Sequence record: OR995200.1
Direction: 5' to 3' (one strand)
From: Escherichia phage JY01
DNA length: 64,000 bases
A program made the position numbers and the translations under genes. The notes under the pieces were generated by a model. The model was not told the DNA's origin, made no database searches, and saw only the letters and a program-made list of their open reading frames with translations. How positions within the stretch are numbered: the stretch's first letter is position 1; each line of letters starts with the position of its first letter. Positions 3,279 to 62,934 of this stretch are shown piece by piece.

Positions 3279-3282
3279 AAAA

Positions 3283-3432
3283 TTACTGCATGACTGTGAT
3301 AACTGTCATGATAACACGTTGAATGCCGAACGCAAGAAGACCTCCTGCTACGGCTGGAACAACACCTAAACCCGCCAGTAAAATGCTACCGGATACTAAT
3401 GCAGCGCTTGTAATACCTATGAATGGACTCAT
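3283..3432 (-). CDS. Small hydrophobic protein (about 49 aa, not in ORF track)
   Basis: MSPFIGITSAALVSGSILLAGLGVVPAVAGG... AGAGGA Shine-Dalgarno. ATG overlaps the gene 52 stop. Confidence 0.35.
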   Translation of the reverse strand: MSPFIGITSAALVSGSILLAGLGVVPAVAGGLLAFGIQRVIMTVITVMQ

Positions 3433-4757
3433 TTGATTTCCTCTAAATCTTTAGTGTATTCGGTAACTACATTAGTAGTTTTCCAATATTCGTTTTCTTC
3501 TTTCTTAGCTTTAGCTTCTTCAGCAAGTTTCTTTGCTTCGTCGGAAGTCATATGAAAAATATTCATTCCAACTAGTTTATCAACATAAGAAGAATACATA
3601 TCGATTTTCGAAAGTTCTTCGGTCAGTTCTTTGCGAGTTTTACCCTGCACAACGATTTCACCTGAAATTACTTTCTTAATGAAATGTGCCTTGGCAAAGG
3701 CTAAACGAAAAGCTGACTCAGTTTCTTTGATTTTGTTATCAATTCGTTTTTTGACATAAGTTTTACGAACTTCAACAAAGTCTTTAATTAAATCGACTAC
3801 GTTATCGTAAACTTGTAGTTTTCCTTTCTCATTAATAACCGTAATATTCTGAGAACGGCGCTCAATTAACCCAAAGTCTTTCATAATTTTTGCATGGCGT
3901 TCTTCTTCATTATCGCTCAAAGAATATTCTTTACGGAATTTAACTTTAAAGCCAAAACCATGCTCACCACAAGCATCATCCCATGTAATGAAGCCTTTAT
4001 CTTCAAGTGGGTCTAAGATTTTACTCACATAAGTTTCACGATCATACTTATACGGAATCTCAGTGATATGCATTTGAGTTCGTGAAGTAAACTTATATGT
4101 TCCACGAATTTCATATTGCCCATCAATCTCAACGACTTCACCACGAAATTCTGGGAATTCTACCTTCGGTTTAGTTACTTTCTTTCCTTGAAGAGCTTGT
4201 AATACAGCTTTCTTAACAGAAGAAACGCTATGAGGAAGAATGTAAGTTGCATAACCAGTTGCAATACCGGAAACGCCATTAAGAAGAACAGTAGGAATAA
4301 TAGGCAAATAGAAAGCAGGCGGAATGTGTTCTTTATCTTGATGTACCGGAGCATATTCAGTATCTTTATATACGTTATAGAAATTTTTACTTACACGAGC
4401 AAAAATATAACGACTTGCTGCTGCTTTTTGGACGGTACGAGAACCAAAGTTTCCTTGACCATCTAACAAAGGAAAGTTATTATTCCAAGTGTTAGCCATC
4501 AAAGCCCCCGCATCTTGTGCAGAGTTTTCACCATGATGATATCCAAGGTCAGCTACACCACCTGCAATAGAAGCAAGTTTGTGAAACTTATCTTTATTTC
4601 CTCGTGCTAAATCAAGGGCTCGAGCAATAACAAATCGTTGGACTGGCTTAAATCCGTCAATCATATTTGGAATGGCACGATTTTCAACCGTGTACATAGC
4701 ATAAGCCAATGCTTCATTATCAATGATACTTTTTAAATCGCGATTATTCAGTTGCAT
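3429..4757 (-). CDS. 52: DNA topoisomerase II medium subunit (GyrA-like)
   Basis: 442 aa as in T4 gp52. GyrA-type N-terminus. ATG start. Confidence 0.9.
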   Translation of the reverse strand: MQLNNRDLKSIIDNEALAYAMYTVENRAIPNMIDGFKPVQRFVIARALDLARGNKDKFHKLASIAGGVADLGYHHGENSAQDAGALMANTWNNNFPLLDGQGNFGSRTVQKAAASRYIFARVSKNFYNVYKDTEYAPVHQDKEHIPPAFYLPIIPTVLLNGVSGIATGYATYILPHSVSSVKKAVLQALQGKKVTKPKVEFPEFRGEVVEIDGQYEIRGTYKFTSRTQMHITEIPYKYDRETYVSKILDPLEDKGFITWDDACGEHGFGFKVKFRKEYSLSDNEEERHAKIMKDFGLIERRSQNITVINEKGKLQVYDNVVDLIKDFVEVRKTYVKKRIDNKIKETESAFRLAFAKAHFIKKVISGEIVVQGKTRKELTEELSKIDMYSSYVDKLVGMNIFHMTSDEAKKLAEEAKAKKEENEYWKTTNVVTEYTKDLEEIK

Positions 4758-11091: not shown

Positions 11092-11123
11092 TAATTATAC
11101 CACATCCTTGTGGTAAAGTAAAC
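11092..11123 (-). promoter_or_regulatory. Early promoter
   Basis: GTTTAC, 17 nt, GTGGTATAAT on the minus strand, upstream of the rIIA.1-position ORF. Confidence 0.5.
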
Positions 11124-12943
11124 TACTGGCTCATCCATTCTTTACGAAGGTCAGCATTATCTCCCATGAGCATTTCAAAAAGATCTTTCCAGTTCTCAGG
11201 AAGTTTAACAACATCATATACTGGATTTTGAATCATCTCACGATATTCAGATTTTTCCAAAGAGCCAAGTCCCTTAATATAACGGATGCTATGTTTAGGT
11301 AGAGCATCTTTAGCACTCTCATATTCAGCGACTGTATAAAACCATTCTTGTTTTTTACCGACCTGGGCGATGATTACAGGAGTTTTGACAAAGCGAATTC
11401 GTCCTTGCTCAAACAATTCTGGCCAATTACTAAAAAATCCAAGAAGAGAAGGATAAATGCTTCCTAGACCATCATGGTCAGCATCAGTCATAATAGCAAT
11501 ATTATGATAATTCAAGTTTTCAGCTTTTTCACCAAGAACTAATCCAGTGATTGCGCAAATATCAAATAGTTCTTTGTTTTTAAGCATATCAGCATATGAC
11601 ATACCCCAACTGTTGAGAACTTTACCGCGCAATGGATAACCACCATGAAGTTCTTTATCACGAACATCAATAAGATATCCGATAGCAGAATCACCCTCAG
11701 TCAAGAAAAGAGTAGTATCAGCATCTTTACCGCAAAGATTCGCTTTGATATGTTTATGAACCTTTGCCTTAGAAGCCTTTTTAGCTGCTTTAGTTTCAGC
11801 TGCTTTTTCTGCTGCCAATTTACGAGCTAGTGCAGCTTCAATAATTGGCATCAGAATTGCTTCATTATTTAGAATAGCGCGTGAAATCTTTTTAGCGTCA
11901 AGTTGAATATGACTACGGATTTCACCAAATGGAGAAGTCAAACGCTCTTTAGTTTGAGAATCAAATCGCATGTTTTTCATATCACGAACAAACATAACGA
12001 TAGTCAAACATTCTTTAACACGTGCTTTAGTTACATCAATTTTGAACTTACGTTTGATTTGTGGAATAAGGTCTTCACAAATATCATCCATAACACAGTC
12101 AATGTGATGACCACCATTCTTAGTATGAATGTTATTGACGTATGTTAATTGACGAAAACCATCCGGTGAACGACCAACCGCAATAGAACAATTTTCTTGT
12201 TCTTGAACAATAGCATGCTCATCATATTGGCGTGCATATTTCTTAAAATTACCCTGAACCTTTTTACCGTTAAAGGTAAATTGAATATCAGGATAAACTA
12301 CTGCAAGTGTCTGGAGACGATCTAGTGTAATGTCAAGATAAACCTGAGATAGCTCATTAGTTTCAAATGACATAAAATCAGGAATGAAAGTAACACGAGT
12401 TCCTTTCCATTTTCCAGGAATATCTTCCCATGATTTATTTTCCATGCCATTTGAACAACGAACTACAATATTATTTTGACCGTCGCCAGTTTCACCGACA
12501 AACATAACAGAAAAAATGTTAGTTAAACTAGAGCCAACACCGTTCATACCGCCAGTGACGCGTTCTTTATCATCGCCGAAGTTACCACCTGCTTTTGGAA
12601 TAGTCCAGGCGGCAACAGGACCAGGAATTTCTTCACCAGTAGGTGTTTTAACCATCGCTTGTGGAATACCACGACCGTTATCTTCAACTGTTACTTGATT
12701 GTTTTTAATAGTAACGTTAATTTTATTTGCGAATTTAAACTTAGTACGAATACCTTCATCTACTGAGTTATCGATAATTTCATCAATAAGCTTAACAAGA
12801 CCAGGTACATACTGAACACTTTCCCATTTACCAAACAGAAAGCGCTCATGCATTTCATTAGCAGAAGAACCAATGTACATGCCGCTACGCTTTTTGATAT
12901 GTTCAATATCGCTCAGAATTTTAATTTCATTCTTAATCATCAC
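11123..12943 (-). CDS. 39: DNA topoisomerase II large subunit (GyrB-like), unsplit 39+60 form
   Basis: 606 aa with GyrB ATPase and TOPRIM regions in one ORF. T4 splits this into gene 39 plus gene 60; here it is continuous. Confidence 0.9.
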   Translation of the reverse strand: MMIKNEIKILSDIEHIKKRSGMYIGSSANEMHERFLFGKWESVQYVPGLVKLIDEIIDNSVDEGIRTKFKFANKINVTIKNNQVTVEDNGRGIPQAMVKTPTGEEIPGPVAAWTIPKAGGNFGDDKERVTGGMNGVGSSLTNIFSVMFVGETGDGQNNIVVRCSNGMENKSWEDIPGKWKGTRVTFIPDFMSFETNELSQVYLDITLDRLQTLAVVYPDIQFTFNGKKVQGNFKKYARQYDEHAIVQEQENCSIAVGRSPDGFRQLTYVNNIHTKNGGHHIDCVMDDICEDLIPQIKRKFKIDVTKARVKECLTIVMFVRDMKNMRFDSQTKERLTSPFGEIRSHIQLDAKKISRAILNNEAILMPIIEAALARKLAAEKAAETKAAKKASKAKVHKHIKANLCGKDADTTLFLTEGDSAIGYLIDVRDKELHGGYPLRGKVLNSWGMSYADMLKNKELFDICAITGLVLGEKAENLNYHNIAIMTDADHDGLGSIYPSLLGFFSNWPELFEQGRIRFVKTPVIIAQVGKKQEWFYTVAEYESAKDALPKHSIRYIKGLGSLEKSEYREMIQNPVYDVVKLPENWKDLFEMLMGDNADLRKEWMSQ

Positions 12944-12991
12944 TTATCCTCGTTTGGTTTCGGGAATATTATACTCCGGTAATCATAAAGC

Positions 12992-13012
12992 TAAAGGCCC
13001 GAAGGCCTTTTA
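12992..13012 (-). other. UUCG-tetraloop RNA hairpin
   Basis: AAGGCCCGAAGGCCTT stem-loop at the 3' end of the lipoprotein gene, upstream of gene 39. Confidence 0.4.
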
Positions 13013-13270
13013 TTTAAAACGGATAGTCGAATCCTTGAAGAATAGACCAGAACATACGGTTCCTTCTACTTTCTGCCCGGTAGGTCCAATAGCGCGAAAT
13101 CCAGTATGTTGGAAATCATTTTCAGAGCAACCGAACCAATTGTATCCAGTGATTTCAATATTAGTAAAACCGCTTGATGACAAAATTTTGGTTGCATTAT
13201 CAGCATCAGTACATCCTGCTAAAGACACTGCTAATACTAATGCTGCGATAGAACGATTAATATATTTCAT
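13010..13270 (-). CDS. Putative lipoprotein (86 aa)
   Basis: Track ORF trimmed to ATG. MKYINRSIAALVLAVSLAGC has a signal peptide and LAGC lipobox. Confidence 0.5.
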   Translation of the reverse strand: MKYINRSIAALVLAVSLAGCTDADNATKILSSSGFTNIEITGYNWFGCSENDFQHTGFRAIGPTGQKVEGTVCSGLFFKDSTIRFK

Positions 13271-13274
13271 AATT

Positions 13275-13646
13275 TCACTCAAATTTAATGGCTTGAAGAA
13301 GACTAATAATTCTCAAGCGACTTCTTTCATCTTTAACTGTAAAAGAAAGAGGGTCACCAGATTTCATAGTGATGATGCATCCAAAATCAAAATCTTCTGT
13401 AACTTCTTCGAAGAAGTCAAATTCTTCATCATAAATTAGAACATTACTCTGAAAGCTGTGAAGAATTTTTCCATCATTTCCAGATGCTGTACTAATCATT
13501 GTAACATTATGACCTTTCATATCTTCAACGATAAATTCGCTTGTAGATATTACTGCATTAATAGAACCGTTCCTATGAATAGCAGAAAATAGATATTTCT
13601 TTTCTTCACCTTCGCGAACACGATATTTCTTACCGATTTTAAACAT
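13275..13646 (-). CDS. Hypothetical protein (123 aa)
   Basis: ATG start in a TAATTATG junction with the upstream small ORF. Confidence 0.45.
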   Translation of the reverse strand: MFKIGKKYRVREGEEKKYLFSAIHRNGSINAVISTSEFIVEDMKGHNVTMISTASGNDGKILHSFQSNVLIYDEEFDFFEEVTEDFDFGCIITMKSGDPLSFTVKDERSRLRIISLLQAIKFE

Positions 13647-14852: not shown

Positions 14853-15272
14853 TTATGCTAAAGCTGCTTCGCACCATTTTTTAATTTGGAATTCAGGAAC
14901 TACCATGAACTGGCCTGCAAAAACAATATTGTAGAGCTTGACACCATCTTCTACCCAACGGTCCGAAATAAAACCAGCGACTTGATTCGTTGTCCATGGA
15001 GTTCCATCTGTTGCCGCCGCAATTGTGAATTTATGGTCTTTTACAACTAAAACTGAAGAACAAAGTTTCCATTTAAATGCGCTTTCTTCTGGCTCAATGA
15101 ACTGACTTGAGACATAACCAATGTTACCATCAGCGTCACGAACTTTAACCTCGTTACGACCAAAAACTGGATCACTTACAGAAAGAACTTCAACCAGCTT
15201 TCCTGCAACTTTAGAACGAGAAGCAACGGATACATATACGTAATCACCAGTAGAGAGATTTACAATATTCAT
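14853..15272 (-). CDS. MotB-family paralog A (139 aa)
   Basis: Shares N-terminal VxVASRSKVAGKLVEV and C-terminal D-x-W-V-EDG-x-K-L-Y-N-I-V-F-x-G-x-F motifs with the two upstream genes. Confidence 0.5.
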   Translation of the reverse strand: MNIVNLSTGDYVYVSVASRSKVAGKLVEVLSVSDPVFGRNEVKVRDADGNIGYVSSQFIEPEESAFKWKLCSSVLVVKDHKFTIAAATDGTPWTTNQVAGFISDRWVEDGVKLYNIVFAGQFMVVPEFQIKKWCEAALA

Positions 15273-15281
15273 AATAATTCC

Positions 15282-15755
15282 TTAAGCTTTACGAGGAGAA
15301 GCATAACGAGTGATTTCAGATTCTTCAACAACCCGGAAGTCACCTAAGAATACGATATTGTAGAGCTTTTCACCATCTTCAACCCATTGGTCTGTGATGA
15401 AGCCACACATCCTATCAGTTTTACTTGGACCAGCGAAATCATCAATATAATCGAATTCTTCATCAGTTACAAATTCAACGCCTTTACACAACGCCCATTT
15501 AAATTGTGCATTAGACTCAGTGGATTCAACTTCTTCAACAGAAGCAAAATGAGAGCTAACACGAGTTTCCAGAAATTTAGGACTTACGTAAGCGTACTGA
15601 GTTTCAGTTTTTCCAGAACTAGGAATGATTCGAACTTTAACTTCTATAACACGACCAGTACCATTAGTACGAAGTCCTACCACTTCAACTAGACGACCTG
15701 CAGCTTTAGAACGAGATGCAGACGATACACGCTTAATTTCACCGATAGTAATCAT
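15282..15755 (-). CDS. MotB-family paralog B (157 aa)
   Basis: SSASRSKAAGRLVEV ... FITDQWVEDGEKLYNIVFLGDF. ATG start. Confidence 0.5.
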   Translation of the reverse strand: MITIGEIKRVSSASRSKAAGRLVEVVGLRTNGTGRVIEVKVRIIPSSGKTETQYAYVSPKFLETRVSSHFASVEEVESTESNAQFKWALCKGVEFVTDEEFDYIDDFAGPSKTDRMCGFITDQWVEDGEKLYNIVFLGDFRVVEESEITRYASPRKA

Positions 15756-15793
15756 AATTTTTCTCTCTTTATTGTTAAGATTTATTCTCCATG

Positions 15794-15828
15794 AGAGCCA
15801 TTATAACAGGCTCTCTATAAAGTAAACT
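15794..15828 (-). promoter_or_regulatory. Early promoter with inverted repeat around the -10
   Basis: GTTTAC, spacer, GAGAGCC-TGTTATAAT-GGCTCTC, then a 5-codon mini-ORF ATGGAGAATAAATCTTAA before the paralog B start. Confidence 0.45.
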
Positions 15829-16322
15829 TAATTAAGGATATTAATTACTGCACTACGTGGAACTACACTAAAATCACCTGCATGAACAACGTTCAGAAGT
15901 TCAACACCGTCTTCAATCCACTGATCAGTTACCCATCCACTCACTGGACCTGCGAACGGACGTCGAATTGAAACAGCTTTACACAACAAATCAGTAGGCT
16001 CAATAGGCTTAACCAGAGTACCGTACATACAAGCGATATCCATATCAATACAGATGTCTTTAACGGGTTCTACTTCTTCAATCAACAGTTCAAAGTCGGT
16101 GCTTGGAAGGGCGGTAGTAGAAATTGTACCGTATGAATTTTTAATTTCTAAGAATAACCAAGAGCCTTCAACTTGTTTGATGAAGTTAACAATAGTGAAA
16201 CTATTACCTTGAGTGGCGCCTAAAATTTCACAAAACTTTTCATAAGCTCGCACTGAAGCACCATACCAGTTGATTTGCTTTTCGTCTTTCAGGATGTAAG
16301 TAGCTGTAGTACTGATATTCAT
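15828..16322 (-). CDS. MotB-family paralog C (164 aa, motB position)
   Basis: C-terminal WVTDQWIEDGVELLNVVHAGDF. Size and position resemble T4 MotB (recalled as 162 aa). Confidence 0.5.
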   Translation of the reverse strand: MNISTTATYILKDEKQINWYGASVRAYEKFCEILGATQGNSFTIVNFIKQVEGSWLFLEIKNSYGTISTTALPSTDFELLIEEVEPVKDICIDMDIACMYGTLVKPIEPTDLLCKAVSIRRPFAGPVSGWVTDQWIEDGVELLNVVHAGDFSVVPRSAVINILN

Positions 16323-16334
16323 GATGTTTTCCCC

Positions 16335-16838
16335 TTAATCTAAGGTAATAAAGCCTTTTAATTCGGCATGTGACTTGCGGAACATTACTTGATGACCGCC
16401 AATGATAACTTGGTCATCAGGTACTTCGTATACAGCGAGATAAAATCCTTTAGAAGCTAATTCTTCACGCTCTTCTCGTGTGAACCATCTCATCATATCA
16501 TATTCGCTAGCGAAAGCAAAATGATAAAGAGCTATAAACCATCCTGGAATATAGTGATCTACGCCTACATATTCTTCTTTCTCAAAATTAGTATTAATTG
16601 CTATATTAGCATTTTTAACTAATAGTTTGTCTTCGTGCGGAAGAGGAATTCTTTTATTATCATTACTATGATGCATAAAATTAGGTCTGTCATAACCTAC
16701 GTGTAATAACCACTCTTCACTCCATGAATCTATTATACTCCTGTACGGAGTTATTTGAACACAAAGATCTCGACGTATTGTTATAGCATCTTCATAATTA
16801 AGAATACTAAATGATGATTCAACACGATAAATTTTCAT
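16335..16838 (-). CDS. Hypothetical protein (167 aa)
   Basis: Track ORF starts at a TTG inside the promoter -10. The real ATG has a GAGGA Shine-Dalgarno. Confidence 0.5.
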   Translation of the reverse strand: MKIYRVESSFSILNYEDAITIRRDLCVQITPYRSIIDSWSEEWLLHVGYDRPNFMHHSNDNKRIPLPHEDKLLVKNANIAINTNFEKEEYVGVDHYIPGWFIALYHFAFASEYDMMRWFTREEREELASKGFYLAVYEVPDDQVIIGGHQVMFRKSHAELKGFITLD

Positions 16839-16861
16839 TTTATTATCCTCAGTAGCTATGG

Positions 16862-16895
16862 TGTTATAATACCACAACTAACCGAGGAAGTAAAC
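16862..16895 (-). promoter_or_regulatory. Early promoter
   Basis: GTTTAC, 17 nt, GTGGTATTATAAC on the minus strand. Confidence 0.5.
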
Positions 16896-16901
16896 AACTT
16901 T

Positions 16902-17585: not shown

Positions 17586-17827
17586 TAAACTTTCCTCGCT
17601 AAATCGCGAATTTGACCTACAGTATAATCTTGGATATAAACTTTATTAATGGGCTCATCAATAAATTTTGCCATAGATTCAATATCTTTTTGCATCTCTT
17701 CAAGACTGTATACTATCTTTGAAGCTTTTTCACGAATAGTTACATTTTCAGGTCCTGGATTTTCTTCAATGACAGCTTTAACATTTGCCATAAGAGATTT
17801 AAACTGATACCAACTTAATTCAATCAT
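17585..17827 (-). CDS. Hypothetical protein (80 aa)
   Basis: ORF between dda and dexA. Confidence 0.4.
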   Translation of the reverse strand: MIELSWYQFKSLMANVKAVIEENPGPENVTIREKASKIVYSLEEMQKDIESMAKFIDEPINKVYIQDYTVGQIRDLARKV

Positions 17828-18080
17828 TAATAATCGCCTTATAAAGATGGCTAATTTCGCCTAAAACATAATCACTGATTGTAACAGTTTTCACTTCACC
17901 ACAAAAGAATTCTAACGCAATTAAATCTCGTTCAATTTCTTCTAATTGAAGCATTAACTTGCCAGATTCAATTTTTACATTTCTACGATTTTTACTATAA
18001 GCTATTTCATAAATTTCGCTCACATTATCTTGAAGCAGATAAAACTGGTCTTTAGTTATTTCCACGAATAGCTTCCTCAA
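17820..18080 (-). CDS. Hypothetical protein (86 aa)
   Basis: ORF between dda and dexA. Overlaps neighbours by a few nt. Confidence 0.4.
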   Translation of the reverse strand: MRKLFVEITKDQFYLLQDNVSEIYEIAYSKNRRNVKIESGKLMLQLEEIERDLIALEFFCGEVKTVTISDYVLGEISHLYKAIIND

Positions 18081-19947: not shown

Positions 19948-20694
19948 TTATCCTCGGATAAGTTTAAAAATTGAACAATTTAGCGGGTATCCTCTTTTCA
20001 GTTTAAGTTTATCAATAAAAGACAAGTTTTGATACCGCTCTACACCTTGAATAATTTTATCACACATGTCATATTGCATTTCTGCTTCTGACAACTTTTT
20101 CACAATTTTCCAATCCGAGCCTTTAAGAAGAACGTTCAGTTTAACAACTTCAGCGCCTTCTGCTATGCGAGAACCATCAATACGAGCTTTAAGTGCTATA
20201 ATCCTTAGCTTAATGTCAGAGGTCTGTTTTGATTTAGAAAGCTGAGAAATGTGTTCAATTCGATTTTCACGCTTTTTCTGTATAGCTTTAATTTGATTAT
20301 AAGTCTTTTTGATTTTAGCCCATTTCTTTTCATCTAAATTTAGTTTATGAACTTTTTTCGCAGATGAACGACCAATTCGCAAAGCAAATAAATCCCGTTT
20401 TTCAATCAACTCTTCTAAAGTATAATCAGAACGAAATGTATTATACTTTTTCTTTACTGCAATAACGTTCCCTTTAATGTATCCAATGTTATTATCAAAA
20501 CGTTCTAATGATAATTTCTCTCCTTCAATACGATTATCAAAAGGTTCTCCCGAGTAAGCACAAACTTTTTGATCTAAAATGTTCTTAATGTAATTGAAGT
20601 CTAAGTTAAAATCTTTAGAACGTCTTTTTGCAGATGCCTGAGTGTGCTCTAAACGACGTTTAATTTTACGAATTTGATTATTAGACAGTTTCAT
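19948..20694 (-). CDS. Basic 248-aa protein at the srd position
   Basis: Size and position between modA and dda match T4 Srd. Contains CAYSGEPFD...LSLERFDNNIGYIKGNVIAV, which resembles a degenerate HNH-like segment. Identity unverified. Confidence 0.45.
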   Translation of the reverse strand: MKLSNNQIRKIKRRLEHTQASAKRRSKDFNLDFNYIKNILDQKVCAYSGEPFDNRIEGEKLSLERFDNNIGYIKGNVIAVKKKYNTFRSDYTLEELIEKRDLFALRIGRSSAKKVHKLNLDEKKWAKIKKTYNQIKAIQKKRENRIEHISQLSKSKQTSDIKLRIIALKARIDGSRIAEGAEVVKLNVLLKGSDWKIVKKLSEAEMQYDMCDKIIQGVERYQNLSFIDKLKLKRGYPLNCSIFKLIRG

Positions 20695-24481: not shown

Positions 24482-24512
24482 AATAAACTCCTTTATTGTT
24501 TAATTACAGGTG

Positions 24513-24520
24513 TATTTATA
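24513..24520 (-). promoter_or_regulatory. Late promoter (TATAAATA) for soc
   Basis: Exact TATAAATA on the minus strand about 30 nt upstream of the soc ATG, with an AAGGAG Shine-Dalgarno. Confidence 0.5.
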
Positions 24521-24522
24521 AC

Positions 24523-24663
24523 TTATAATTTAGCGGCTTTCCAGAGTTGTTCAATAATCTCTTGGTCTATTTCTTTAGTTATTTCATTACGTAATAAAGC
24601 AGTAAGGGCTTTCGCCCTTTTCTTATTCAACTTTTTGAGTTGACGTTTATTTAAACGAGACAT
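24523..24663 (-). CDS. Small basic protein (about 46 aa, not in ORF track)
   Basis: MSRLNKRQLKKLNKKRAKALTALLRNEITKEIDQ... ATG overlaps the gene 56 stop (TAATG). Confidence 0.3.
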   Translation of the reverse strand: MSRLNKRQLKKLNKKRAKALTALLRNEITKEIDQEIIEQLWKAAKL

Positions 24664-31525: not shown

Positions 31526-32368
31526 TTAATCAACTGCTATTGGATGAATAGCATTAAACTTATGAAACGCTTCTGATTTTTCTTTGCGCGAAACACACAT
31601 GCGAAGAACCTTTAATGGCTCGTCTTCTTCACCCAACGATTTTCTCTTTTCAATATTCGATGTTTTCCAACGAGCTTGCTCTGGAAACTCTCTATTGATT
31701 TGCTCAAGCGCTCTATTATGTTTAGAATTACTACGAATTGAACTACATCCGCCAGGAGCTTGTGCTTTTCCAGATACAACCAGATATTTGAACAGGGCCA
31801 AATGCGGATAACCTTGACTAATTAAATTGAGAAATGCATACATATCTTCGCATAAATCAATTTTTCCATACCCAATTTGTTCTGTCGTAAGTTTTCCGAG
31901 GTCATACCATGTATTCGTGAATCCATATGAATTTTCACGATAATTACCCCAAGATGAAGTAATTTTAAAAATAGGTAGACGAGCATGGCCATGATAATAC
32001 CCGCAATCCATGGCATCCTCAACATATTGAATCAATTCATAGAACTGTTCACGAGTCAATTGATTGACTTTATCTACGCAACGACGATCATCTCTTTTTC
32101 GCATTGAACTCATACGAATAGTAGTATCATCGTCAATCATCCAGATTCGTTGACCTGCATATATATCGGTAATTGCTTTACGAGTACCGGCAATTCCGTT
32201 TACATCATCAGGAATAGTTATAATTTTAGCTCTAGACCCATAAGCGTCATGATAAGCTTTTTCTTCATGTTCACGCACTACAATATGGGGTTCATAATCA
32301 GTCGGAAACATATCAAGGGCAGAAACTGCCCCGACACGCTGATAACTTGGAATTACGAATTGAATCAT
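31526..32368 (-). CDS. Putative DNA hydroxymethylcytosine glycosyltransferase, GT-A-like
   Basis: About 280 aa at the locus where T4 has bgt (351 aa). IWMIDDDTTI has a DxD-like motif. ATG overlaps the gene 42 stop. Resembles the T2/T6 arrangement by position only. Confidence 0.55.
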   Translation of the reverse strand: MIQFVIPSYQRVGAVSALDMFPTDYEPHIVVREHEEKAYHDAYGSRAKIITIPDDVNGIAGTRKAITDIYAGQRIWMIDDDTTIRMSSMRKRDDRRCVDKVNQLTREQFYELIQYVEDAMDCGYYHGHARLPIFKITSSWGNYRENSYGFTNTWYDLGKLTTEQIGYGKIDLCEDMYAFLNLISQGYPHLALFKYLVVSGKAQAPGGCSSIRSNSKHNRALEQINREFPEQARWKTSNIEKRKSLGEEDEPLKVLRMCVSRKEKSEAFHKFNAIHPIAVD

Positions 32369-33105
32369 TTCCACTCACCGTTATAATCTTTTTTCACAAT
32401 ATGAGTTTCGCCAGTATTCCACCAATGATCAACCAAGTAAAAATGACGAGAATATACATGAAGACTTCCAACATTCCATATAATAGAACCTGCTTTATAC
32501 TGACGAGTTGAATCGCCGGCATTCAAATCAGATACTAATTTATCTAATACGTATTTTTGCCATGCATAATCATTACGGAATCCGAAGACCACGTCATTTG
32601 AGCGCATGCTTACTACTGCATTGACTTTCTTATCACGAATCAGATACTGTACGGTATTCGTACACATGAAATCTGACATACCATCTTTATTGTAGTCAAA
32701 TTGCATGGATGGACGAGTATAAATCATGATACCACGTCGAGAATCAGGATTTTGACCAAGTTCAGCTAAACACATATCATACTGGGCATAGTTATCTTCT
32801 GACCAGATAGCCCAACCATAATTCGAGTTAATTTCGCCTTTAGAAGATGCTACCTGCTGCCAAATCTTTGGTGTTTCACCTGGAATATCTTTAACAAACA
32901 AGCTCTTAGATTTATACCATTCAAGTTCGCGCTGAATGTATTCATCATTAAGAGCGCCAAAAATAAACGGTTCATCTGCTACAAATGATGCGCCAATAAT
33001 TTCAATAGTTTTAACACCAGTTTTATCAACTACGAAATCTTTTTCTTTTAATGCAAGCCCCAAATGAAGACGGATTTCTTCAACTGTCATAGAGTCACTA
33101 ATCAT
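32365..33105 (-). CDS. 42: dCMP hydroxymethylase
   Basis: 246 aa as in T4 gp42. Thymidylate-synthase-like fold expected. Confidence 0.9.
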   Translation of the reverse strand: MISDSMTVEEIRLHLGLALKEKDFVVDKTGVKTIEIIGASFVADEPFIFGALNDEYIQRELEWYKSKSLFVKDIPGETPKIWQQVASSKGEINSNYGWAIWSEDNYAQYDMCLAELGQNPDSRRGIMIYTRPSMQFDYNKDGMSDFMCTNTVQYLIRDKKVNAVVSMRSNDVVFGFRNDYAWQKYVLDKLVSDLNAGDSTRQYKAGSIIWNVGSLHVYSRHFYLVDHWWNTGETHIVKKDYNGEWK

Positions 33106-40682: not shown

Positions 40683-42365
40683 TTAAACCATTACAGTAAA
40701 TCGACCAACTTTCTTCATTTGAAGATGCTGACCGTATGCTTGCGGGTCATGGTCTCTATGCGAAATAACAAAAACATTAGTATTTTTTAAACTATCTAAA
40801 ATAGTTGAAATAGCTTTTACACCTTCAACGTCGGTCGCTGAATCAAAAACTTCATCAAGAATTAGTGTGTTTATTTTAACGCCTGAAACTTTTTCAGCAA
40901 TATCACGCCAAGTAAATAAAAGAGCAATATCAATTCGCGCTTTTTCACCTTGACTGAATGAAGCATAACTAAAATCTTCACGACCACGTGATTTAATTGT
41001 CTCATTAAATTCTTCATCTAATGTAAACACATAATCCGCTTCCATTATTTTAAGATAATGGTTAATCTGCTTATTAAATAATGGAATGTACTTTTTAATA
41101 ATAGCACCTTTAATACCAGAATCTTTGAGCATATCAGTCAAAATTCCTCGGTGGTATTTTTCCATTACTAAATTAGTTTTTGTCTTAACAATTTTATCAA
41201 GTTCTTCTTGAAGCAGTGCTATTTCATCAGCATGGTCAATAAACTCAGAAGATGCTTTTTCTATAGCCGCTTTAACCTTTTTAGCTTTATCTACTGCTGC
41301 GATCAGAGATTGCTTTTTATTGCGAATATCATTTGCCAACGACTGCTGGGTTTTAATATTATCTCGGTATTCATCAACAAGAACTTTTAAATTATCACGA
41401 TGTGTTGAAAGCTGTTCAAACGAATGCGTACATTCAGAAACTTTATCTTTAATTTTAGAAACAACTTTATCACCTGAACTTAATTGTGACAAGCAGGTTG
41501 GGCATAATCCACCTTCGTGATACATATTAATGACTTTATTATACGAGTCAATTTTTGATTTAATTAAAACTGCTTCTTGACCGATTTTATTAAATGCATC
41601 AGTCGGGTCTTCATCTAAAACAATATTAACTAATCTTTCATTAGCTTCTTCTATTTCCGATTTTAGCGTTCTAGCTTCTTTTGCCAAATCATCATACATA
41701 TTTTGAAGACGAGTAAGGTTGTCACCCGTTAATTTTTTCTGGCGTTCAACGTTATCATTATATATTTTAATTTGTTGGATAATACTATCTTTTTTAACAT
41801 CAAGCACTTGGTTTTGTGAATTTAATTCACGTATTAGTGCTTTATTAAGCTTATCCATTTCAGCTAATGTTCCTACCTCAAGCAGGTCTTCCACAAGCTT
41901 TCTTCGCGCAGGGGTCGACAAACCCATGAAAGGGGTATACCCTGCTGTACCAAGGACAACAATCTGCTTGAAACTGGCATATGACATTCCGATAAGCTGT
42001 TCAAATTCTGCTTGGAAATCTTTACTGCTGGCAGATTCATTAAGACGTGTACCGTTAACGGTGATTTCGAAAACGTTTGGTTTTTGTCCTCTTTTGATAT
42101 AGTACTTTTTCTCATCATATTCCATCCACAGTTCAACTAAAAGTTCTTTCTTATTTGTGCTGTTTATTAATTGACCTTTCTTTACATCACGAAATGGCTT
42201 GCCAAAAAGCCCAAATGTGATGGCTTCTAACATAGTAGACTTACCACCGCCATTTCGTCCAGTAATAAGAGTTTTTTGAACCTTATCTAATTGAATGCCA
42301 ATAGGATTTCCACCTACTGACATTATATTTTGATACCTAACTCGGTTTAGTTTAAAATTCTTCAC
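40683..42365 (-). CDS. 46: Recombination endonuclease subunit (SbcC/Rad50-like)
   Basis: 560 aa as in T4 gp46. Walker A GRNGGGKST, central coiled coil, C-terminal LILDEVFD. GTG start. Confidence 0.9.
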   Translation of the reverse strand: MKNFKLNRVRYQNIMSVGGNPIGIQLDKVQKTLITGRNGGGKSTMLEAITFGLFGKPFRDVKKGQLINSTNKKELLVELWMEYDEKKYYIKRGQKPNVFEITVNGTRLNESASSKDFQAEFEQLIGMSYASFKQIVVLGTAGYTPFMGLSTPARRKLVEDLLEVGTLAEMDKLNKALIRELNSQNQVLDVKKDSIIQQIKIYNDNVERQKKLTGDNLTRLQNMYDDLAKEARTLKSEIEEANERLVNIVLDEDPTDAFNKIGQEAVLIKSKIDSYNKVINMYHEGGLCPTCLSQLSSGDKVVSKIKDKVSECTHSFEQLSTHRDNLKVLVDEYRDNIKTQQSLANDIRNKKQSLIAAVDKAKKVKAAIEKASSEFIDHADEIALLQEELDKIVKTKTNLVMEKYHRGILTDMLKDSGIKGAIIKKYIPLFNKQINHYLKIMEADYVFTLDEEFNETIKSRGREDFSYASFSQGEKARIDIALLFTWRDIAEKVSGVKINTLILDEVFDSATDVEGVKAISTILDSLKNTNVFVISHRDHDPQAYGQHLQMKKVGRFTVMV

Positions 42366-45207: not shown

Positions 45208-45261
45208 TTAATATCCTCTTTGTTTTGGTTTATTTTACCAAAAATTTATAAAGCAATATAG

Positions 45262-45276
45262 GAGCCGAAGCTCCTA
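45262..45276 (-). other. UUCG-type RNA hairpin
   Basis: GGAGCCGAAGCTCC stem-loop. Confidence 0.4.
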
Positions 45277-49549: not shown

Positions 49550-50020
49550 TTAATCATGTTTCCACACCCCATCGGTATTTGACCAAAGTCGCTGATTGTC
49601 TGATCCTCGCCACAGCTTTTTGGTCGGAAGATTTTTCTCATACTTCCCATCAATAATAACATCAACATATTTAAGCATTTCTAGTTGTTTAATATCTTCA
49701 AACTTATATCCTGTCCACAACCAAATGCTTTTATTGGGATAAAGATTTTTTACTGTTTGAACGATGCAATGAATAACATCTCGGTTATCAGGATAGAGAG
49801 GGTCACCTCCGGTTATAGTCAATCCTTCTATATAATCATTATTCAAACATTCAATCAATTGTTCTAGTGTTTCACCAGTGAATGGAATACCATTTCTAGC
49901 ATTCCATGTTGATTTATTATAACACCCTTCGCATTTATGCAAACAACCTGTGACGAAAAGAACGACCCTGCATCCAGGGCCATTCACAAAATCACAGGGA
50001 TAAAATCTATCATAATTCAT
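49550..50020 (-). CDS. nrdG: Anaerobic ribonucleotide reductase activating protein (radical SAM)
   Basis: 156 aa as in T4 NrdG. Cys cluster GCLHKCEGC. Confidence 0.85.
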   Translation of the reverse strand: MNYDRFYPCDFVNGPGCRVVLFVTGCLHKCEGCYNKSTWNARNGIPFTGETLEQLIECLNNDYIEGLTITGGDPLYPDNRDVIHCIVQTVKNLYPNKSIWLWTGYKFEDIKQLEMLKYVDVIIDGKYEKNLPTKKLWRGSDNQRLWSNTDGVWKHD

Positions 50021-51834
50021 TGGTGTTTAACCCTATGCATGATTTCTTTATTTTTACCGAGATTAAATCCGCGTTCGTTCGGATTTCCCAAATAACCACA
50101 TGTTCTTCTTATGGTATTCATCTTTTTAGGATCAGTTTCTCCGCAAATAGAACAAACAAATCCGTTTTCAGTAGGAGTCATTTCATGGGTACTTCCACAT
50201 GTAAAACATTTATCTACTGGCATATTAACACCAAAATAATCTAAATGTTGTGCGGCATAATCCCATACAGCCTCAAGACCTTTTAAGTTATTTTTCATAT
50301 CAGGAAGTTCAACATAAGAAATGTGACCACCTGTCGCAATGAAATGATATGGCGCTTCACGAGAAATCTTTTCAAACGGAGTAACATTTTCTTCTACTGA
50401 AACGTGGAAACTGTTAGTGTACCAGCCTTTATCAGTAACATCCTTTACACTTCCATATTTTTCTGTATCAAGTTTACAGAAGCGATAGCAAAGGTTTTCA
50501 GCAGGAGTAGAATACAAGCTAAAAGCAAATCCAGTTCTTTCAGTCCACTGTTTAAGATGAGCATTCATTTTAGTTAAAATTTCTTGCCCAATATCACGAC
50601 CGACAAGAATATTCAATTCGTGAATACCAATGTATCCTAAAGACACTGAACTTCTACCGTTTTTAAATAACTCAATTATGTCGTCATCAGGTTTAAGACG
50701 AACCCCGAATGCACCTTCTTGGTAAAGAATAGGAGCAACAGTCGCTTTAACTCCTTTTAAGGAACTAATTCTACACATCAAAGCTTCAAAACATAAATCC
50801 ATTCGCTCATTGAACAATTCAGTAAATTTCTGTTCATTGAACTGTGTTCCAATATAAGAATCTAACGCAATACGAGGAAGATTCAGTGTTACAACACCAA
50901 GATTATTACGTCCATCAAGAATTTCATTGCCAGTCGAATCTTTCCATACGCTCAAGAAACTACGGCATCCCATCGGGGAAACAGGAACAGATGAACCAGT
51001 GATAGCTTTATTGTTCTTAGCTGAAATAATATCAGGATACATCCTTTTGCTTGCACACTCTAAAGCAAGCTGCTTAATATCATAGTTCGGATCGTCTTTA
51101 TAAAGATTAACACCTTCTTCAACAAACATAACAAGCTTAGGGAAAATAGGAGTTATCCCATCACGACCAAGACCTTTAATACGATTTTTCAAAATTGCTT
51201 TCTGAATCATTCGTTCAGTCCAGTCAGTTCCTGTACCAAATGTAATTGTTACAAAAGGAGTCTGTCCGTTTGAACTAAAGAGAGTATTTACTTCATATTC
51301 ATAAGCTTGGAATGCATCGTATACGTCTTTTTCTGTTTTAGATTGGGCATAATTCAGTGCATCGGCGATTTGCCATTTTTCTGCGTCTTCGATATGTTTT
51401 GCATAGGTGCGTTTAACATAAGGAGAAAGTACTTTATCTACATTAGCAAAAGTCGTTCCGCCATATTGATGGGAAGCAACTTGCGCAGTAATTTGTGCCA
51501 TAATTGCAGTAGCAACACCGATTGATTTAGGAGTTTCAATCTGCGCATTACCAAGCTTAAATCCGTTCTCAAGCATTCCTTTTAAATCTACTAAACAACA
51601 ATTAGTAAATGGAAGAGCAGGGGAATAATCAATATCATGAAAATGAATAATTCCGCTTTCATGCGCTTTCATAATAAAAGACGGGACCATATTTTTGGCA
51701 ATGTGTTTAGACACAATACCAGCCATAAGGTCCCGTTGAGTTGGAAAAACACGAGAATCTTTATTAGCATTCTCGTTTAAAAGGTCTTTATTAGTTTTAT
51801 GAATCAATCCTTCAATTTCTTTTTCAATTGTCAT
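50017..51834 (-). CDS. nrdD: Anaerobic ribonucleotide reductase, intronless
   Basis: Continuous 605-aa ORF with C-terminal glycyl-radical motif RTCGYLG and a Cys-rich tail. Confidence 0.9.
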   Translation of the reverse strand: MTIEKEIEGLIHKTNKDLLNENANKDSRVFPTQRDLMAGIVSKHIAKNMVPSFIMKAHESGIIHFHDIDYSPALPFTNCCLVDLKGMLENGFKLGNAQIETPKSIGVATAIMAQITAQVASHQYGGTTFANVDKVLSPYVKRTYAKHIEDAEKWQIADALNYAQSKTEKDVYDAFQAYEYEVNTLFSSNGQTPFVTITFGTGTDWTERMIQKAILKNRIKGLGRDGITPIFPKLVMFVEEGVNLYKDDPNYDIKQLALECASKRMYPDIISAKNNKAITGSSVPVSPMGCRSFLSVWKDSTGNEILDGRNNLGVVTLNLPRIALDSYIGTQFNEQKFTELFNERMDLCFEALMCRISSLKGVKATVAPILYQEGAFGVRLKPDDDIIELFKNGRSSVSLGYIGIHELNILVGRDIGQEILTKMNAHLKQWTERTGFAFSLYSTPAENLCYRFCKLDTEKYGSVKDVTDKGWYTNSFHVSVEENVTPFEKISREAPYHFIATGGHISYVELPDMKNNLKGLEAVWDYAAQHLDYFGVNMPVDKCFTCGSTHEMTPTENGFVCSICGETDPKKMNTIRRTCGYLGNPNERGFNLGKNKEIMHRVKHQ

Positions 51835-60938: not shown

Positions 60939-61952
60939 TCATTTATAATAACTTCGGTGGTTTTCAAGATAGACCTTCTCAAGGAAGTCATCCCAGAAAC
61001 TCATGTCTACTGTTTTAGGCATACCGTTCTTAGAAGCTTCAGTAGATGCTGCTTCTACTTGATCGACCACATCTTCTAAAAACTCTTGAACCGTTTTAAA
61101 TGGATGCTTACCCAACTTCACGTCGAGAATAAATGGAGCGTCTTGAAGTGGATAAATCAAGTCGCCAGTTTTGTAAATTTCCAATAGTTGAAGTCCACCA
61201 CGACAGGCATGACTCAGAGCTTTCCAGTCAATGCCTTCATTGGCTTCGGCCTTACGAGCACGTTCACCATATTCAGCATCTAATTTGTTCAGTGACTGCT
61301 TAAGCTCAATAAGAGAAAGCGTTGTCTGATATTTACGACCCAATACAGTGTAGAACGTTTGTGGACCTGTTTTCTCATGATTATGGAATACCCATTCACA
61401 GAACTCGTTTTCTGGAAGACGATGCTTAATATCTTCAATTTTAGTGCGACGTTGTCCTTGTGTTCCATCTTCTCGGTAGACATTCCGTTGATCAGGAATT
61501 TGATTAACTACTTTCAATACATCACGTAATGCAGCCAAACGAGAACCCTTGACACCGTATTTAGAAGCTTGCTTGCGGACATATCCTAAATAGGATTTCA
61601 TGTTAGTCGTATAAAAACGAGAACGGTTGTCTTGAATAAACTTCCACACATCAGGCAAATCGGATTTAACCACTAGTTCAGGTGGAGTGTGAAGCATATC
61701 CAATGCTACAGTTTCACCATCTGCTGCTAATTTAAAGAAATATTTAAGACTGTATAGTTCATGGTCAATATCATCTTTAGTGTTTTTAGATGATGTGTTG
61801 TTAGTGTTTTTACTCATATGCTCTTTAACATTTCCGATAAGAATATCGCGAGCACGAGGAACAAAGATTTCTTTAAAATCTACATCAGATTCTGGAGTAG
61901 AAGTTCCATAAAGATGACTACCAAAATAGCTTTTCATTACTGTTTTCATCAT
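60939..61952 (-). CDS. Nucleotidyltransferase-motif protein (pol-beta / MNT-type), 337 aa
   Basis: N-terminal FGSHLYGTSTPESDVDF fits the GS-x(9-13)-DxD nucleotidyltransferase signature. The rest of the protein is not recognised. Confidence 0.5.
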   Translation of the reverse strand: MMKTVMKSYFGSHLYGTSTPESDVDFKEIFVPRARDILIGNVKEHMSKNTNNTSSKNTKDDIDHELYSLKYFFKLAADGETVALDMLHTPPELVVKSDLPDVWKFIQDNRSRFYTTNMKSYLGYVRKQASKYGVKGSRLAALRDVLKVVNQIPDQRNVYREDGTQGQRRTKIEDIKHRLPENEFCEWVFHNHEKTGPQTFYTVLGRKYQTTLSLIELKQSLNKLDAEYGERARKAEANEGIDWKALSHACRGGLQLLEIYKTGDLIYPLQDAPFILDVKLGKHPFKTVQEFLEDVVDQVEAASTEASKNGMPKTVDMSFWDDFLEKVYLENHRSYYK

Positions 61953-62410
61953 TCAGCCTTATATTCAATAACAGGACATACTTTAGCTTTACGGGCTTTT
62001 AAAAATTCGACGATAATAGATTTCTTGGGTTGAATAGGAGGTAAACCTTTATACGCCCTATCAATATTTTCTACATGTAAAGCATAATCCTTTTTCCATT
62101 TATAATCTTTATATTTTTCATGCAGTTGTGCAGGAATAACAAATGAACCAATAATAAGTAAAACAAGCAAAATGGCAAGTATAAATGCTGATGGAATAAG
62201 AGTCCATAAACTACCAAAAATAAGCCATTTCTGCATGATTTCTGCACAGATAATAGTTAGACCTGCGAGTATAGTACATCCGAAAAAAGAAACGAAAAAT
62301 GTAGGAATAACAACAGACCAAAAATACGCGCATAGTGTCTTAGGTCGTTGCCATTCATCGTTAAACAATTTGAATAATTTATAGTGCCAAGAGTTTTCAT
62401 TAATAATCAT
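61949..62410 (-). CDS. Polytopic membrane protein (153 aa)
   Basis: Three or four hydrophobic helices. Stop overlaps the nucleotidyltransferase start by 4 nt. Confidence 0.5.
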   Translation of the reverse strand: MIINENSWHYKLFKLFNDEWQRPKTLCAYFWSVVIPTFFVSFFGCTILAGLTIICAEIMQKWLIFGSLWTLIPSAFILAILLVLLIIGSFVIPAQLHEKYKDYKWKKDYALHVENIDRAYKGLPPIQPKKSIIVEFLKARKAKVCPVIEYKAE

Positions 62411-62412
62411 AA

Positions 62413-62934
62413 TTATCCTTTCATTGAAGGCGTAACGGTTGTTAAATACTTAATCATAGCTTCAGCTTCTGATTTTGATAATGAAATTTCTTCATTGTTT
62501 TGACGAATAGAAATAAAATCCGGATGACGGTCACCACCAGCTTTTAAAACACACATATAAGTATCGACTTCGCCTTCAATATTTGAAATGATTGAAGCAG
62601 TTCCGCATGAATGTGGTTTTTGATAAATCAATACAGCTTTTCTTCCACCGTTTGACTGTTCATAGGCTTTTAATACATCAAGCAAATCAGTTCTTTTATC
62701 AATAGCTAAAATGTTATTTTCATCTTCAATGTTAAATCCTTCGGATACTTCATAAAGTGTTACCCATAAATCACCGATGTCAATAACAGCATTTACTTTT
62801 CCACGACTTTCAAGAGTATGACAAATTTTCTTGATTTCGTCATAACTCATTTTAATAATATCATCTCCTTGACTAAGGAAGATGTCATTTTTAAATTCAA
62901 CACGAATTAAACCGCTTCCACTTGAAATAAACAT
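62413..62934 (-). CDS. Hypothetical protein (173 aa), tandem paralog a
   Basis: C-terminal SKSEAEAMIKYLTTVTPSM resembles the end of the upstream 184-aa gene. Confidence 0.45.
   Translation of the reverse strand: MFISSGSGLIRVEFKNDIFLSQGDDIIKMSYDEIKKICHTLESRGKVNAVIDIGDLWVTLYEVSEGFNIEDENNILAIDKRTDLLDVLKAYEQSNGGRKAVLIYQKPHSCGTASIISNIEGEVDTYMCVLKAGGDRHPDFISIRQNNEEISLSKSEAEAMIKYLTTVTPSMKG

Follow-up and report, generated by a model that had tools for sequence, protein, structure and literature searches.

Gene 39 and its partner subunit

The window, meaning the whole 64,000-nucleotide stretch of DNA that was analysed, comes from a Tequatrovirus genome (T4-like, Straboviridae) and is collinear with the T4 genome between gene t and mobD.1, an interval that includes rIIB, rIIA and gene 39. 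The topoisomerase genes, and the site at which the large-subunit gene is split in T4, are the following:

11123..12943, minus strand: unsplit topoisomerase II large subunit gene ('60plus39' type), an ORF of 606 codons from GTG
11459..11522, minus strand: native gene 39 segment, the un-invaded MobA target region, marked by a gap in the T4 alignment
3429..4757, minus strand: gene 52, GyrA-like topoisomerase partner subunit (99.3% amino acid identity to T4 gp52; Pfam DNA_topoisoIV, 9.3e-77)

Gene 39 lies between rIIA.1 and 39.1, as it does in relatives that have an unsplit gene. Because the codon after the GTG is an ATG (12940) with GAGG before it, translation probably starts there and yields a protein of 605 amino acids, the length annotated for gp39 of both T2 and T6. 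The initial annotation had described a single uninterrupted gene, and this is borne out by the collinearity of the one ORF with T4 gp39 followed by gp60: residues 2-474 correspond to T4 gp39 1-473 (98.5%), and residues 473-606 to T4 gp60 27-160 (94.8%). Gapless amino acid identity is 99.5% to T6 gp39 and 99.7% to T2 gp39, while at the DNA level the best-matching records reach 96-97.6% identity. From the unsplit 60plus39 genes of T2, T6, RB14, RB32 and most Tequatrovirus genomes, the gene differs by point substitutions only. Hundreds of phage records carry the large-subunit annotation for this gene, and its product matches the Pfam families HATPase_c, DNA_gyraseB and TOPRIM_C. Judged by these sequence features, the protein is a complete large subunit with GHKL ATPase, GyrB transducer and Toprim regions in one polypeptide, partnered by gp52. 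Given an identity of at least 99.5% to the T2 and T6 proteins, the enzyme would be expected to carry out ATP-dependent DNA relaxation.

In T4, the same enzyme is split between genes 39 and 60 by the MobA/50-nt bypass cassette, whereas the window lacks the 50-nt coding gap, 60.1 and mobA. The alignment passes from 11458 to 11523 in the window where it passes from 2793 to 3911 in T4; nothing in the window corresponds to the T4 segment with the bypass, 60.1 and mobA, and native sequence occupies 11459-11522. The terminal extensions encoded by the T4 cassette are absent from the window protein, which has the native 64-bp segment there instead. Across 11440-11540, 99 of the 101 nucleotides are identical to T2, and the junction is uninterrupted in 454 of 498 records.

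The nrdD and nrdG genes

The anaerobic ribonucleotide reductase genes differ from those of T4 in a similar way:

50017..51834, minus strand: intronless nrdD, anaerobic ribonucleotide reductase large subunit, a continuous 605-aa ORF
51296..51299, minus strand: unoccupied site at which the I-TevII-encoding group I intron is inserted in T4 nrdD (T4 44815-45847 absent)
49550..50020, minus strand: nrdG, the start of which overlaps the nrdD stop (ATGA), leaving the mobC/segH slot empty (Pfam Fer4_12/Radical_SAM)

The reading of nrdD as one continuous ORF stands. The protein shares 602 of its 605 residues with the product of spliced T4 nrdD and matches full-length NRDD (4e-171) as well as Gly_radical in Pfam. 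The T4 intron (1033 nt) is exactly missing. At gathering thresholds, the group I intron model (Rfam RF00028) had no match in the whole 64-kb window, and the T4 nrdD region, used as a positive control, was identified as Intron_gpI with 105 bits. The flanks of the insertion point carry eight silent changes relative to the T4 exons and match T2 at 87 of 89 positions, which makes this a T2-type allele. The intron junction is uninterrupted in 612 of 672 records. T4 42916-43518 (mobC) is absent between nrdG and nrdD, a junction that is uninterrupted in 584 of 761 records.

Other homing-endonuclease sites

All seven T4 endonuclease slots in this interval (the mobA/bypass cassette, segF, segA, mobB, mobC, the I-TevII intron and mobD) are either empty or hold other genes, and the large T4-only segments of the collinear alignment all fall on annotated T4 endonuclease elements. 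The remaining T4 slots are listed here together with one slot that is occupied in T6:

24482..24662, minus strand: soc/gene 56 interval (T4 segF slot), sole content a 46-aa ORF without a GIY-YIG match (T4 15610-16270 absent)
31526..32374, minus strand: beta-glucosyl-HMC-alpha-glucosyltransferase gene, 282 aa (phrog_842, 2.7e-88; Pfam TAGT, 1.4e-10)
42362..42365, minus strand: overlap of the gene 46 start and the gene 46.1 stop (ORFs 40683-42365 and 42362-42625), an empty slot
45208..45273, strand not applicable: alpha-gt/a-gt.2 interval, the empty mobB slot (T4 37817-38679, mobB, absent)
61949..62934, minus strand: mobD slot, occupied by two non-endonuclease genes, one for a membrane protein (153 aa) and one for a y05I-like putative transcription factor (173 aa)

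The glucosyltransferase gene has no T4 homologue and takes the place of T4 segA and beta-gt; T6 has such a gene at the same position. The arrangement of the soc/gene 56 interval is identical in CAM-21. In the mobD slot, T4 56449-57258 has been replaced, and the two genes found there match phrog_944 (1.8e-50) and the Pfam families T4_y05I_N (1.5e-33) and T4_y05I_C (1e-22). These ORFs were considered as endonuclease genes and rejected on account of their products. The mobB site is uninterrupted in 475 of 501 records.

The 46/46.1 slot holds an HNH endonuclease gene in T6 and a disrupted copy in T2, and the window has none; T6 32489-33343 and T2 32898-33750 are without a counterpart. This junction is uninterrupted in 445 of 517 records. 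T6 has annotated homing endonuclease genes at both 46/46.1 and nrdG/nrdD, so that the idea of T2 and T6 as free of such genes in this interval has to be given up.

Searches for endonuclease genes

The initial annotation had reported no homing-endonuclease ORFs, and the searches agree with it. Fifteen T4 endonuclease proteins together with those of T2 and T6 were compared with the window by tblastn, with a best E of 0.06. HMMs of the Seg/I-Tev (GIY-YIG) and Mob (HNH) groups gave no match with E < 0.6 among 1182 six-frame fragments of the window. For GIY-YIG (Seg/I-TevI/I-TevII), the best HMM match had E = 0.62 and all tblastn matches had E > 0.2; for HNH of the Mob/I-TevIII type, the best HMM match had E = 0.98. 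As positive controls, all T4 copies were recovered (GIY-YIG 1e-23 to 1e-43; HNH 1e-45 to 1e-51), including a 37-aa mobA remnant outside the training set (2.8e-14). A segA tblastn match at the edge of the window (64000-63953, E = 9.6) was considered as a truncated GIY-YIG gene and rejected, since it stops after 23 codons and has no GIY-YIG motif. ORFs with T4 homologues were cleared by the curated T4 annotation and the six-frame Seg/Mob profiles, and those without T4 homologues all match non-endonuclease PHROG or Pfam families. This absence applies to 64 kb of a genome of about 167 kb, and endonuclease genes may therefore occur elsewhere in the phage. The contrast drawn with T4, with its split 39/60 and its nrdD intron, is real.

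An endonuclease of an unrecognised family might be encoded by one of the small window-specific ORFs (such as 13275-13646, 18052-18312, 33908-34156, 37105-37362, 46780-47049, 48900-49211 and 61949-62934). Most of them match only PHROGs of unknown function, and, like free-standing endonuclease genes, they lie in intergenic slots. However, at 82-173 aa they fall below the size of most free-standing phage endonucleases (intact T4 ones have 140-264 aa), no nuclease domain was matched in Pfam or PHROGs, and the matches that were found are to a membrane protein, a putative transcription factor, DUF7200 and RB18 ORF43.1. Such a hidden endonuclease is thus extremely improbable.

The HNH-like segment of Srd

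A degenerate HNH-like segment had been noted in the protein at the srd position, and profile matches and a predicted fold agree with this:

19948..20694, minus strand: srd (99.6% identical to T4 Srd)

Besides the Srd family, the protein matches phrog_3118, 'HNH endonuclease' (1.4e-16), and endonuclease VII (1.3e-7) in PHROGs. The AF2 model (pLDDT 93), built with 53 homologues, predicts a beta-beta-alpha unit at residues 61-88, made of strand 61-65, strand 77-81 and helix 82-88. The top fold match of the model in the PDB (Foldseek) is the HNH enzyme PacI, with probability 0.99 and a TM of 0.50 on the target at E = 0.23. The motif E64-R65 ... N76 ... N85 maps onto (D/E)H-N-(H/N), and the conserved Asn residues sit where the metal or structural residues of PacI-type HNH (His-Me finger) nucleases lie. 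The position of the catalytic His at the end of the first strand is Arg65 in 150 of about 153 aligned sequences (150 library representatives and the query), and Arg65 is invariant in the Srd-length alignment. The first 100 residues are part of a very large family without a Pfam model (2024 cluster representatives, E <= 0.001), with the invariant motif C...E-R...G-Y...N...N and Arg at the position of the HNH catalytic His; the homologue search with this domain returned three close matches.

It is conceivable, if rather doubtful, that Srd is a domesticated and catalytically altered relative of HNH endonucleases, which would leave one 'selfish-element-like' protein in the window after all. The PHROG matches, the high-confidence model with PacI as its best match, and the motif are consistent with this, but the Foldseek E-value is poor, and neither Srd nor 56 relatives have a Pfam HNH match. 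Profile-profile comparison of the Srd family with the T4 Mob HNH proteins gave no similarity (probability 0.1), and a PDB sequence search with Srd returned only coiled-coil noise from the C-terminal helices. Srd departs from PacI-type nucleases in the replacement of the first His by Arg, in a long helical domain at its C-terminus and in its reported function, which is not that of a nuclease (stimulating RNase E, according to PMC7430671, which cites Qi et al. 2015). It is also a conserved core early gene found in T2, T6 and CAM-21, rather than a mobile insertion. A literature search that combined Srd and HNH found no paper. If the domain with the predicted PacI-like fold binds or cuts nucleic acids, the reported RNase E stimulation by T4 Srd might use direct contact with RNA or DNA through a repurposed nuclease fold, although this is rather unlikely. 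The fold may merit a short follow-up, independent of this phage.

Relatives of the phage

Mean nucleotide identity of the window over aligned parts is 95.4% to T2, 94.0% to T6 and 94.1% to T4, and the records that come closest, at about 97% identity, include the phages CAM-21 and ECML-363. CAM-21 (Escherichia virus, OP611477) and similar Tequatroviruses of O157 and Shigella have the gene order of positions 1-34224, with 97-98.6% identity. CAM-21 and the window have in common the unsplit gene 39, two MotB-like genes, a 61.2 paralogue pair and the beta-alpha glucosyltransferase, and both lack segF, dam and segA. An additional 330-bp ORF in the denB/denB.1 interval of CAM-21 is absent from the window, and the overall divergence of about 3% indicates that the window comes from a different isolate.

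A T2/T6-like lineage had been proposed for the phage. As far as gene content is concerned, this fits: gp39 is unsplit, nrdD is intronless, the beta-alpha glucosyltransferase is present, and dam is missing, as in T6. A specific T2/T6 lineage is not upheld, since CAM-21 and ECML-363 are nearest, and T2, T4 and T6 are nearly equidistant (94-95%).

Un-invaded alleles or secondary loss

The window is almost certainly an ordinary Tequatrovirus segment that carries un-invaded alleles wherever T4 has a homing-endonuclease element in this interval. Directly observed are the structures of the genes, the lack of these elements and the frequencies of the empty alleles among sequenced relatives. At all five sites that were counted, the empty allele is the majority, in 77-95% of sequenced relatives, and in the literature it is T4 that is the outlier among its relatives (PMC2988022). 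The description of the genome as 'streamlined' is for this reason misleading: the majority of empty alleles at each counted site, together with the gene order of CAM-21, point to an un-invaded default.

In T4, a mobile MobA/50-nt-bypass cassette has split the gene into 39 and 60. In the present phage, the cassette would never have arrived, or recombination with a naive allele would have replaced it, and the two histories would look alike. In the same way, nrdD is without the I-TevII group I intron, with nrdG directly after it, and the segF, segA, mobB, mobC and mobD slots are empty or hold other genes.

The alternative, in which an endonuclease-rich T4-like ancestor lost its elements by deletion, draws on the cycle of invasion, decay and loss proposed for homing endonuclease genes (PMC2988022); decay is visible in T4 mobA and in the T2 46/46.1 endonuclease. 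However, the MobA cassette removes 55-75 nt of native gene 39, which plain deletion could not restore, and the window has kept the native segment in nearly its T2 form. The flanks of the nrdD junction are likewise of the T2 type without the silent changes of T4, and the six-frame search found no remnants in the window. At each site most of the population carries the empty state, which makes a naive ancestry the more parsimonious account, and secondary streamlining is very unlikely.

Among T4 relatives, an unsplit gene 39, an intronless nrdD and few endonuclease genes are the documented and already known norm, and published genomes, CAM-21 among them, are laid out in the same way, so that the observation has little discovery value. 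For annotation, a suitable label for the window is Tequatrovirus, with hydroxymethylcytosine glucosylation genes of the T2/T6 type and homing sites that are naive. MobA-mediated homing into T2 has been shown, according to the cited papers. Since the target regions hardly differ from the T2 ones, the phage would be expected to act as a recipient rather than a donor in mixed infections with T4, and its naive homing sites should receive the T4 MobA cassette and the I-TevII intron.

Gene 39 and nrdD

In Escherichia phage JY01 (OR995200.1), the large subunit of topoisomerase II is encoded by a single reading frame, as the initial annotation had proposed, and not by the genes 39 and 60 into which the MobA/50-nt bypass cassette splits the T4 version. 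Counted from GTG, the ORF at 11123-12943 (minus strand) has 606 codons; an ATG follows directly, preceded by a GAGG box, and a start there gives 605 aa, the length annotated in T2 and T6. Residues 2-474 are collinear with T4 gp39 1-473 (98.5% identity) and residues 473-606 with T4 gp60 27-160 (94.8%), while the whole protein aligns gap-free with gp39 of T6 (99.5% identity) and T2 (99.7%). In the DNA alignment, nothing in the window corresponds to T4 2793-3911 (the 50-nt translational bypass region, 60.1 and the mobA remnant), and 64 bp of native coding sequence (11459-11522) are found where T4 has the cassette. Pfam identifies the HATPase_c, DNA_gyraseB and TOPRIM_C domains in the protein, and its GyrA-like partner, gp52, is encoded at 3429-4757. 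A 188-aa ORF on the plus strand (12873-13439), antisense to the beginning of gene 39 and to 39.1, has probably arisen by chance in AT-rich sequence; its first ~109 codons are open in T4 too (97% identity there), where the frame is unannotated.

The gene nrdD was likewise said to be continuous, and this was borne out. The ORF at 50017-51834 (minus strand) is an uninterrupted 605-aa frame with a full-length match to the NRDD profile and a glycyl-radical domain. Removing exactly 1033 nt (44815-45847) from T4 yields a protein that agrees with it at 602 of 605 positions. No RNA family was detected anywhere in the window by an Rfam search at gathering thresholds; the same search of T4 42000-47000 returned Intron_gpI at 105 bits. 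The insertion point is as in T2 at 87 of 89 positions, whereas the T4 exon flanks differ from the window by eight silent changes, clustered beside the insertion site.

The start codon of the adjoining nrdG overlaps the nrdD stop (ATGA; 50000-50040, minus strand). NrdG of the window starts MNYDRFY and T4 MobC starts MNYDRIY; the near-identity of the two suggests that the opening codons of nrdG may have been duplicated when mobC inserted.

Homing-endonuclease sites

In the interval covered by the window, T4 has seven endonuclease elements (T4 record; Table 1 of PMC2988022), and every one of them coincides with a large T4-only gap in the alignment.

T4 endonuclease elements absent from the window, and the state of each site
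mobA cassette: T4 2793-3911 absent; native gene 39 sequence in the window
segF: T4 15610-16270 absent; empty in the window
segA (with beta-gt): T4 23555-25497 absent; a different 947-bp segment instead
mobB: T4 37817-38679 absent; empty in the window
mobC: T4 42916-43518 absent; empty in the window
nrdD intron (I-TevII): T4 44815-45847 absent; empty in the window
mobD: T4 56449-57258 absent; 963 bp instead

Searches for hidden copies were also negative. In tblastn with the full set of 15 T4 endonuclease proteins plus those of T2 and T6, the best hit in the window had E = 0.06, and the best hit of Seg/I-Tev and Mob profile HMMs among its 1182 six-frame stop-to-stop fragments had E = 0.6. The same profiles find every T4 copy, including a 37-aa mobA remnant absent from the training set. 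A weak segA match at the right edge of the window is not a gene, as judged by translation. All minus-strand ORFs without a T4 homologue were scanned against Pfam and PHROGs, and no nuclease family was found among them. Their matches were to a beta-glucosyl-HMC-alpha-glucosyltransferase, MotB-like paralogues, an AdfA-like paralogue, a membrane protein, a y05I-like putative transcription factor, an 'antitoxin' PHROG, RB18 ORF43.1, DUF7200, and several families of unknown function. Where T4 has mobD, 61949-62934 (minus strand) holds two genes, one for a predicted membrane protein of 153 aa (phrog_944), the other for a y05I-like putative transcription factor of 173 aa (Pfam T4_y05I_N, T4_y05I_C).

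The window was compared with T2 and T6 as well as with T4. In T6, homing endonuclease genes are annotated at the 46/46.1 and nrdG/nrdD junctions, and a disrupted copy of the first is present in T2; all are missing here. Since the T4-only gaps coincide with endonuclease elements, no insertion was misread in 39 or nrdD and the searches were negative, the three parts of the initial claim (unsplit gene 39, intronless nrdD, no GIY-YIG or HNH homing-endonuclease ORFs) all hold.

Prevalence and origin of the empty sites

Short queries were centred on each empty junction, such that an insertion longer than ~560-590 bp splits the match into two places.

Phage records with an uninterrupted junction among matching records
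Gene 39 junction: 454 of 498 (91%)
nrdD intron site: 612 of 672 (91%)
alpha-gt/a-gt.2 (mobB site): 475 of 501 (95%)
nrdD/nrdG (mobC/segH site): 584 of 761 (77%, a lower bound, since diverged Klebsiella phages are among the remainder)
46/46.1 junction: 445 of 517 (86%)

T4 strain records are included in the interrupted minority at the nrdD intron site. The empty state at such sites is not unusual, and the literature agrees: one survey found the MobA/bypass element in only 14 close relatives of T4, and also found highly similar 'parental' genomes that lack it (bioRxiv 10.1101/2022.08.31.505936). The combination of unsplit 39, intronless nrdD and no homing endonucleases is already known and ordinary for the genus.

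The empty sites are most likely naive alleles. On insertion, the MobA element removes 55-75 nt of the native topoisomerase gene (bioRxiv 10.1101/2022.08.31.505936), yet the native stretch is kept in the window, 99 of 101 positions being as in T2, so simple excision from a T4-like ancestor is no explanation. Decayed endonuclease remnants were not detected by the Seg/Mob profile HMMs in any of the six frames of the window. A naive state could reflect either a lineage that was never invaded or restoration by recombination with a naive phage; both differ from streamlining, and that part of the initial annotation did not stand. MobA nicking and insertion are reported for T2 in the cited papers; by inference from its sequence identity to T2, the phage studied here would be a recipient in crosses with T4.

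Relationship to T2, T6 and other relatives

The window is AT-rich (30-37% GC), with nearly all long ORFs on the minus strand and no tRNA found by ARAGORN. Oriented like the T4 reference, it begins within gene t (T4 160454) and ends just beyond mobD.1 (T4 ~57814), in the order t, asiA, motA, 52, ndd, denB, rIIB, T4 origin, rIIA, 39, dexA, dda, srd, modA/B, 56, 61, 41, uvsX, 42, 43, 45, 46, 47, alpha-gt, 55, nrdG, nrdD, 49 and the nrdC cluster. Among 50,697 phage records searched by megablast, there are hundreds of Tequatrovirus matches (phages of Escherichia, Shigella and Yersinia) at 95-99% identity, the top ones being Escherichia virus CAM-21 (OP611477; ~97% over 1-25000) and ECML-363 (97% over 39001-64000).

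A T2/T6-like lineage, as initially suggested, is only partly upheld. Three features are of T2/T6 type: the unsplit gene 39 together with the intronless nrdD; the pairing of alpha-gt (44005-45207) with a beta-alpha glucosyltransferase; and the lack of dam between genes 56 and 61, which resembles T6. Against this, the aligned parts average 95.4% nucleotide identity to T2, 94.0% to T6 and 94.1% to T4, so the genome is a typical Tequatrovirus mosaic, about equally far from all three. The second enzyme of the pair, a 282-aa beta-glucosyl-HMC-alpha-glucosyltransferase (31526-32374, minus strand), replaces the T4 beta-glucosyltransferase, and the two together predict a gentiobiosyl-type HMC modification.

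Between gene 56 (24663-25274) and gene 61 (25450-26478), at 25221-25450, there is no dam gene (DNA adenine methyltransferase; T4 16846-17625), and T6 and CAM-21 lack it here too; in contrast, T2 has dam and an adjoining 181-aa ORF (T2 15995-16540). Neither the window nor T4 or T6 has an equivalent of this ORF, whose sole annotation, 'head outer capsid protein', comes from similarity transfer.

Over the first 34 kb, CAM-21 is organised like the window: its gene 39 is also unsplit, segF, dam and segA are all missing, genes of the MotB-like and 61.2-like kinds are doubled, and the glucosyltransferase is of T2/T6 type. In place of T4 motB and motB.1 there are three neighbouring MotB-related ORFs (139, 157 and 164 aa; 14853-16322, minus strand), an arrangement also seen in CAM-21, with only 37-46% identity to the T4 genes. 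Two 61.2-type genes (Pfam name AdfA, anti-DarT factor A) lie side by side at 26647-27646 (minus strand): a 213-aa copy 77% identical to T4 gp61.2, and a 118-aa paralogue whose match to the AdfA profile is confined to the C-terminal part. T2 has the short form alone. T4 49.2 and 49.3 are swapped for two small ORFs (53168-53556, minus strand), the same pair as in T6, of which the 69-aa product matches phrog_3402 ('antitoxin from a toxin-antitoxin system') and the 71-aa product DUF7205.

An HNH-like domain in Srd

Srd (19948-20694, minus strand) is 99.6% identical to T4 Srd; stimulation of RNase E has been reported for the protein (Qi et al. 2015, as cited in PMC7430671). Beyond the Srd family, its PHROG matches are to 'endonuclease' (1.4e-18), 'HNH endonuclease' (1.4e-16) and 'endonuclease VII' (1.3e-7); there is no match to any Pfam HNH family. 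The protein consists of an N-terminal domain of ~100 residues and a C-terminal half of long helices. An exhaustive HMMER search with residues 1-125 returned 2024 cluster representatives (E <= 0.001), in many of which the domain is repeated or occurs in other contexts; no Pfam model covers the 56 members sampled. C45, R65, G71, Y72, N76 and N85 are near-invariant across this family, and position 64 is always Glu or Asp, with E64 also invariant in the Srd-length subset.

An AlphaFold model built with a 53-sequence alignment (pLDDT 93.4) has a beta-beta-alpha unit (strands 61-65 and 77-81, helix 82-88) followed by long helices, in which E64-R65 ends strand 1, N76 precedes strand 2 and N85 lies within the helix. 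The top PDB match in Foldseek was the HNH restriction enzyme PacI (probability 0.99, TM 0.50 on target, 114 columns), with an E-value of only 0.23; matches in a viral-structure library were to Srd homologues, uncharacterised proteins and one protein named 'HNH endonuclease'. As modelled, the motif would have the HNH layout (D/E)H-N-(H/N), with Arg replacing the catalytic His. Because this Arg is invariant across the family, it is a conserved variant rather than decay particular to this phage. The HNH-like segment ascribed earlier to the srd-position protein thus appears to be correct, given the PHROG matches, the predicted beta-beta-alpha unit and the PacI fold match. Srd is a conserved core early gene and not a mobile element, so the absence of homing endonucleases is unweakened by it. 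Its HNH-like, Arg-substituted N-terminal domain is the sole lead worth noting here, and is somewhat more interesting than the main claim of a backbone free of mobile elements.
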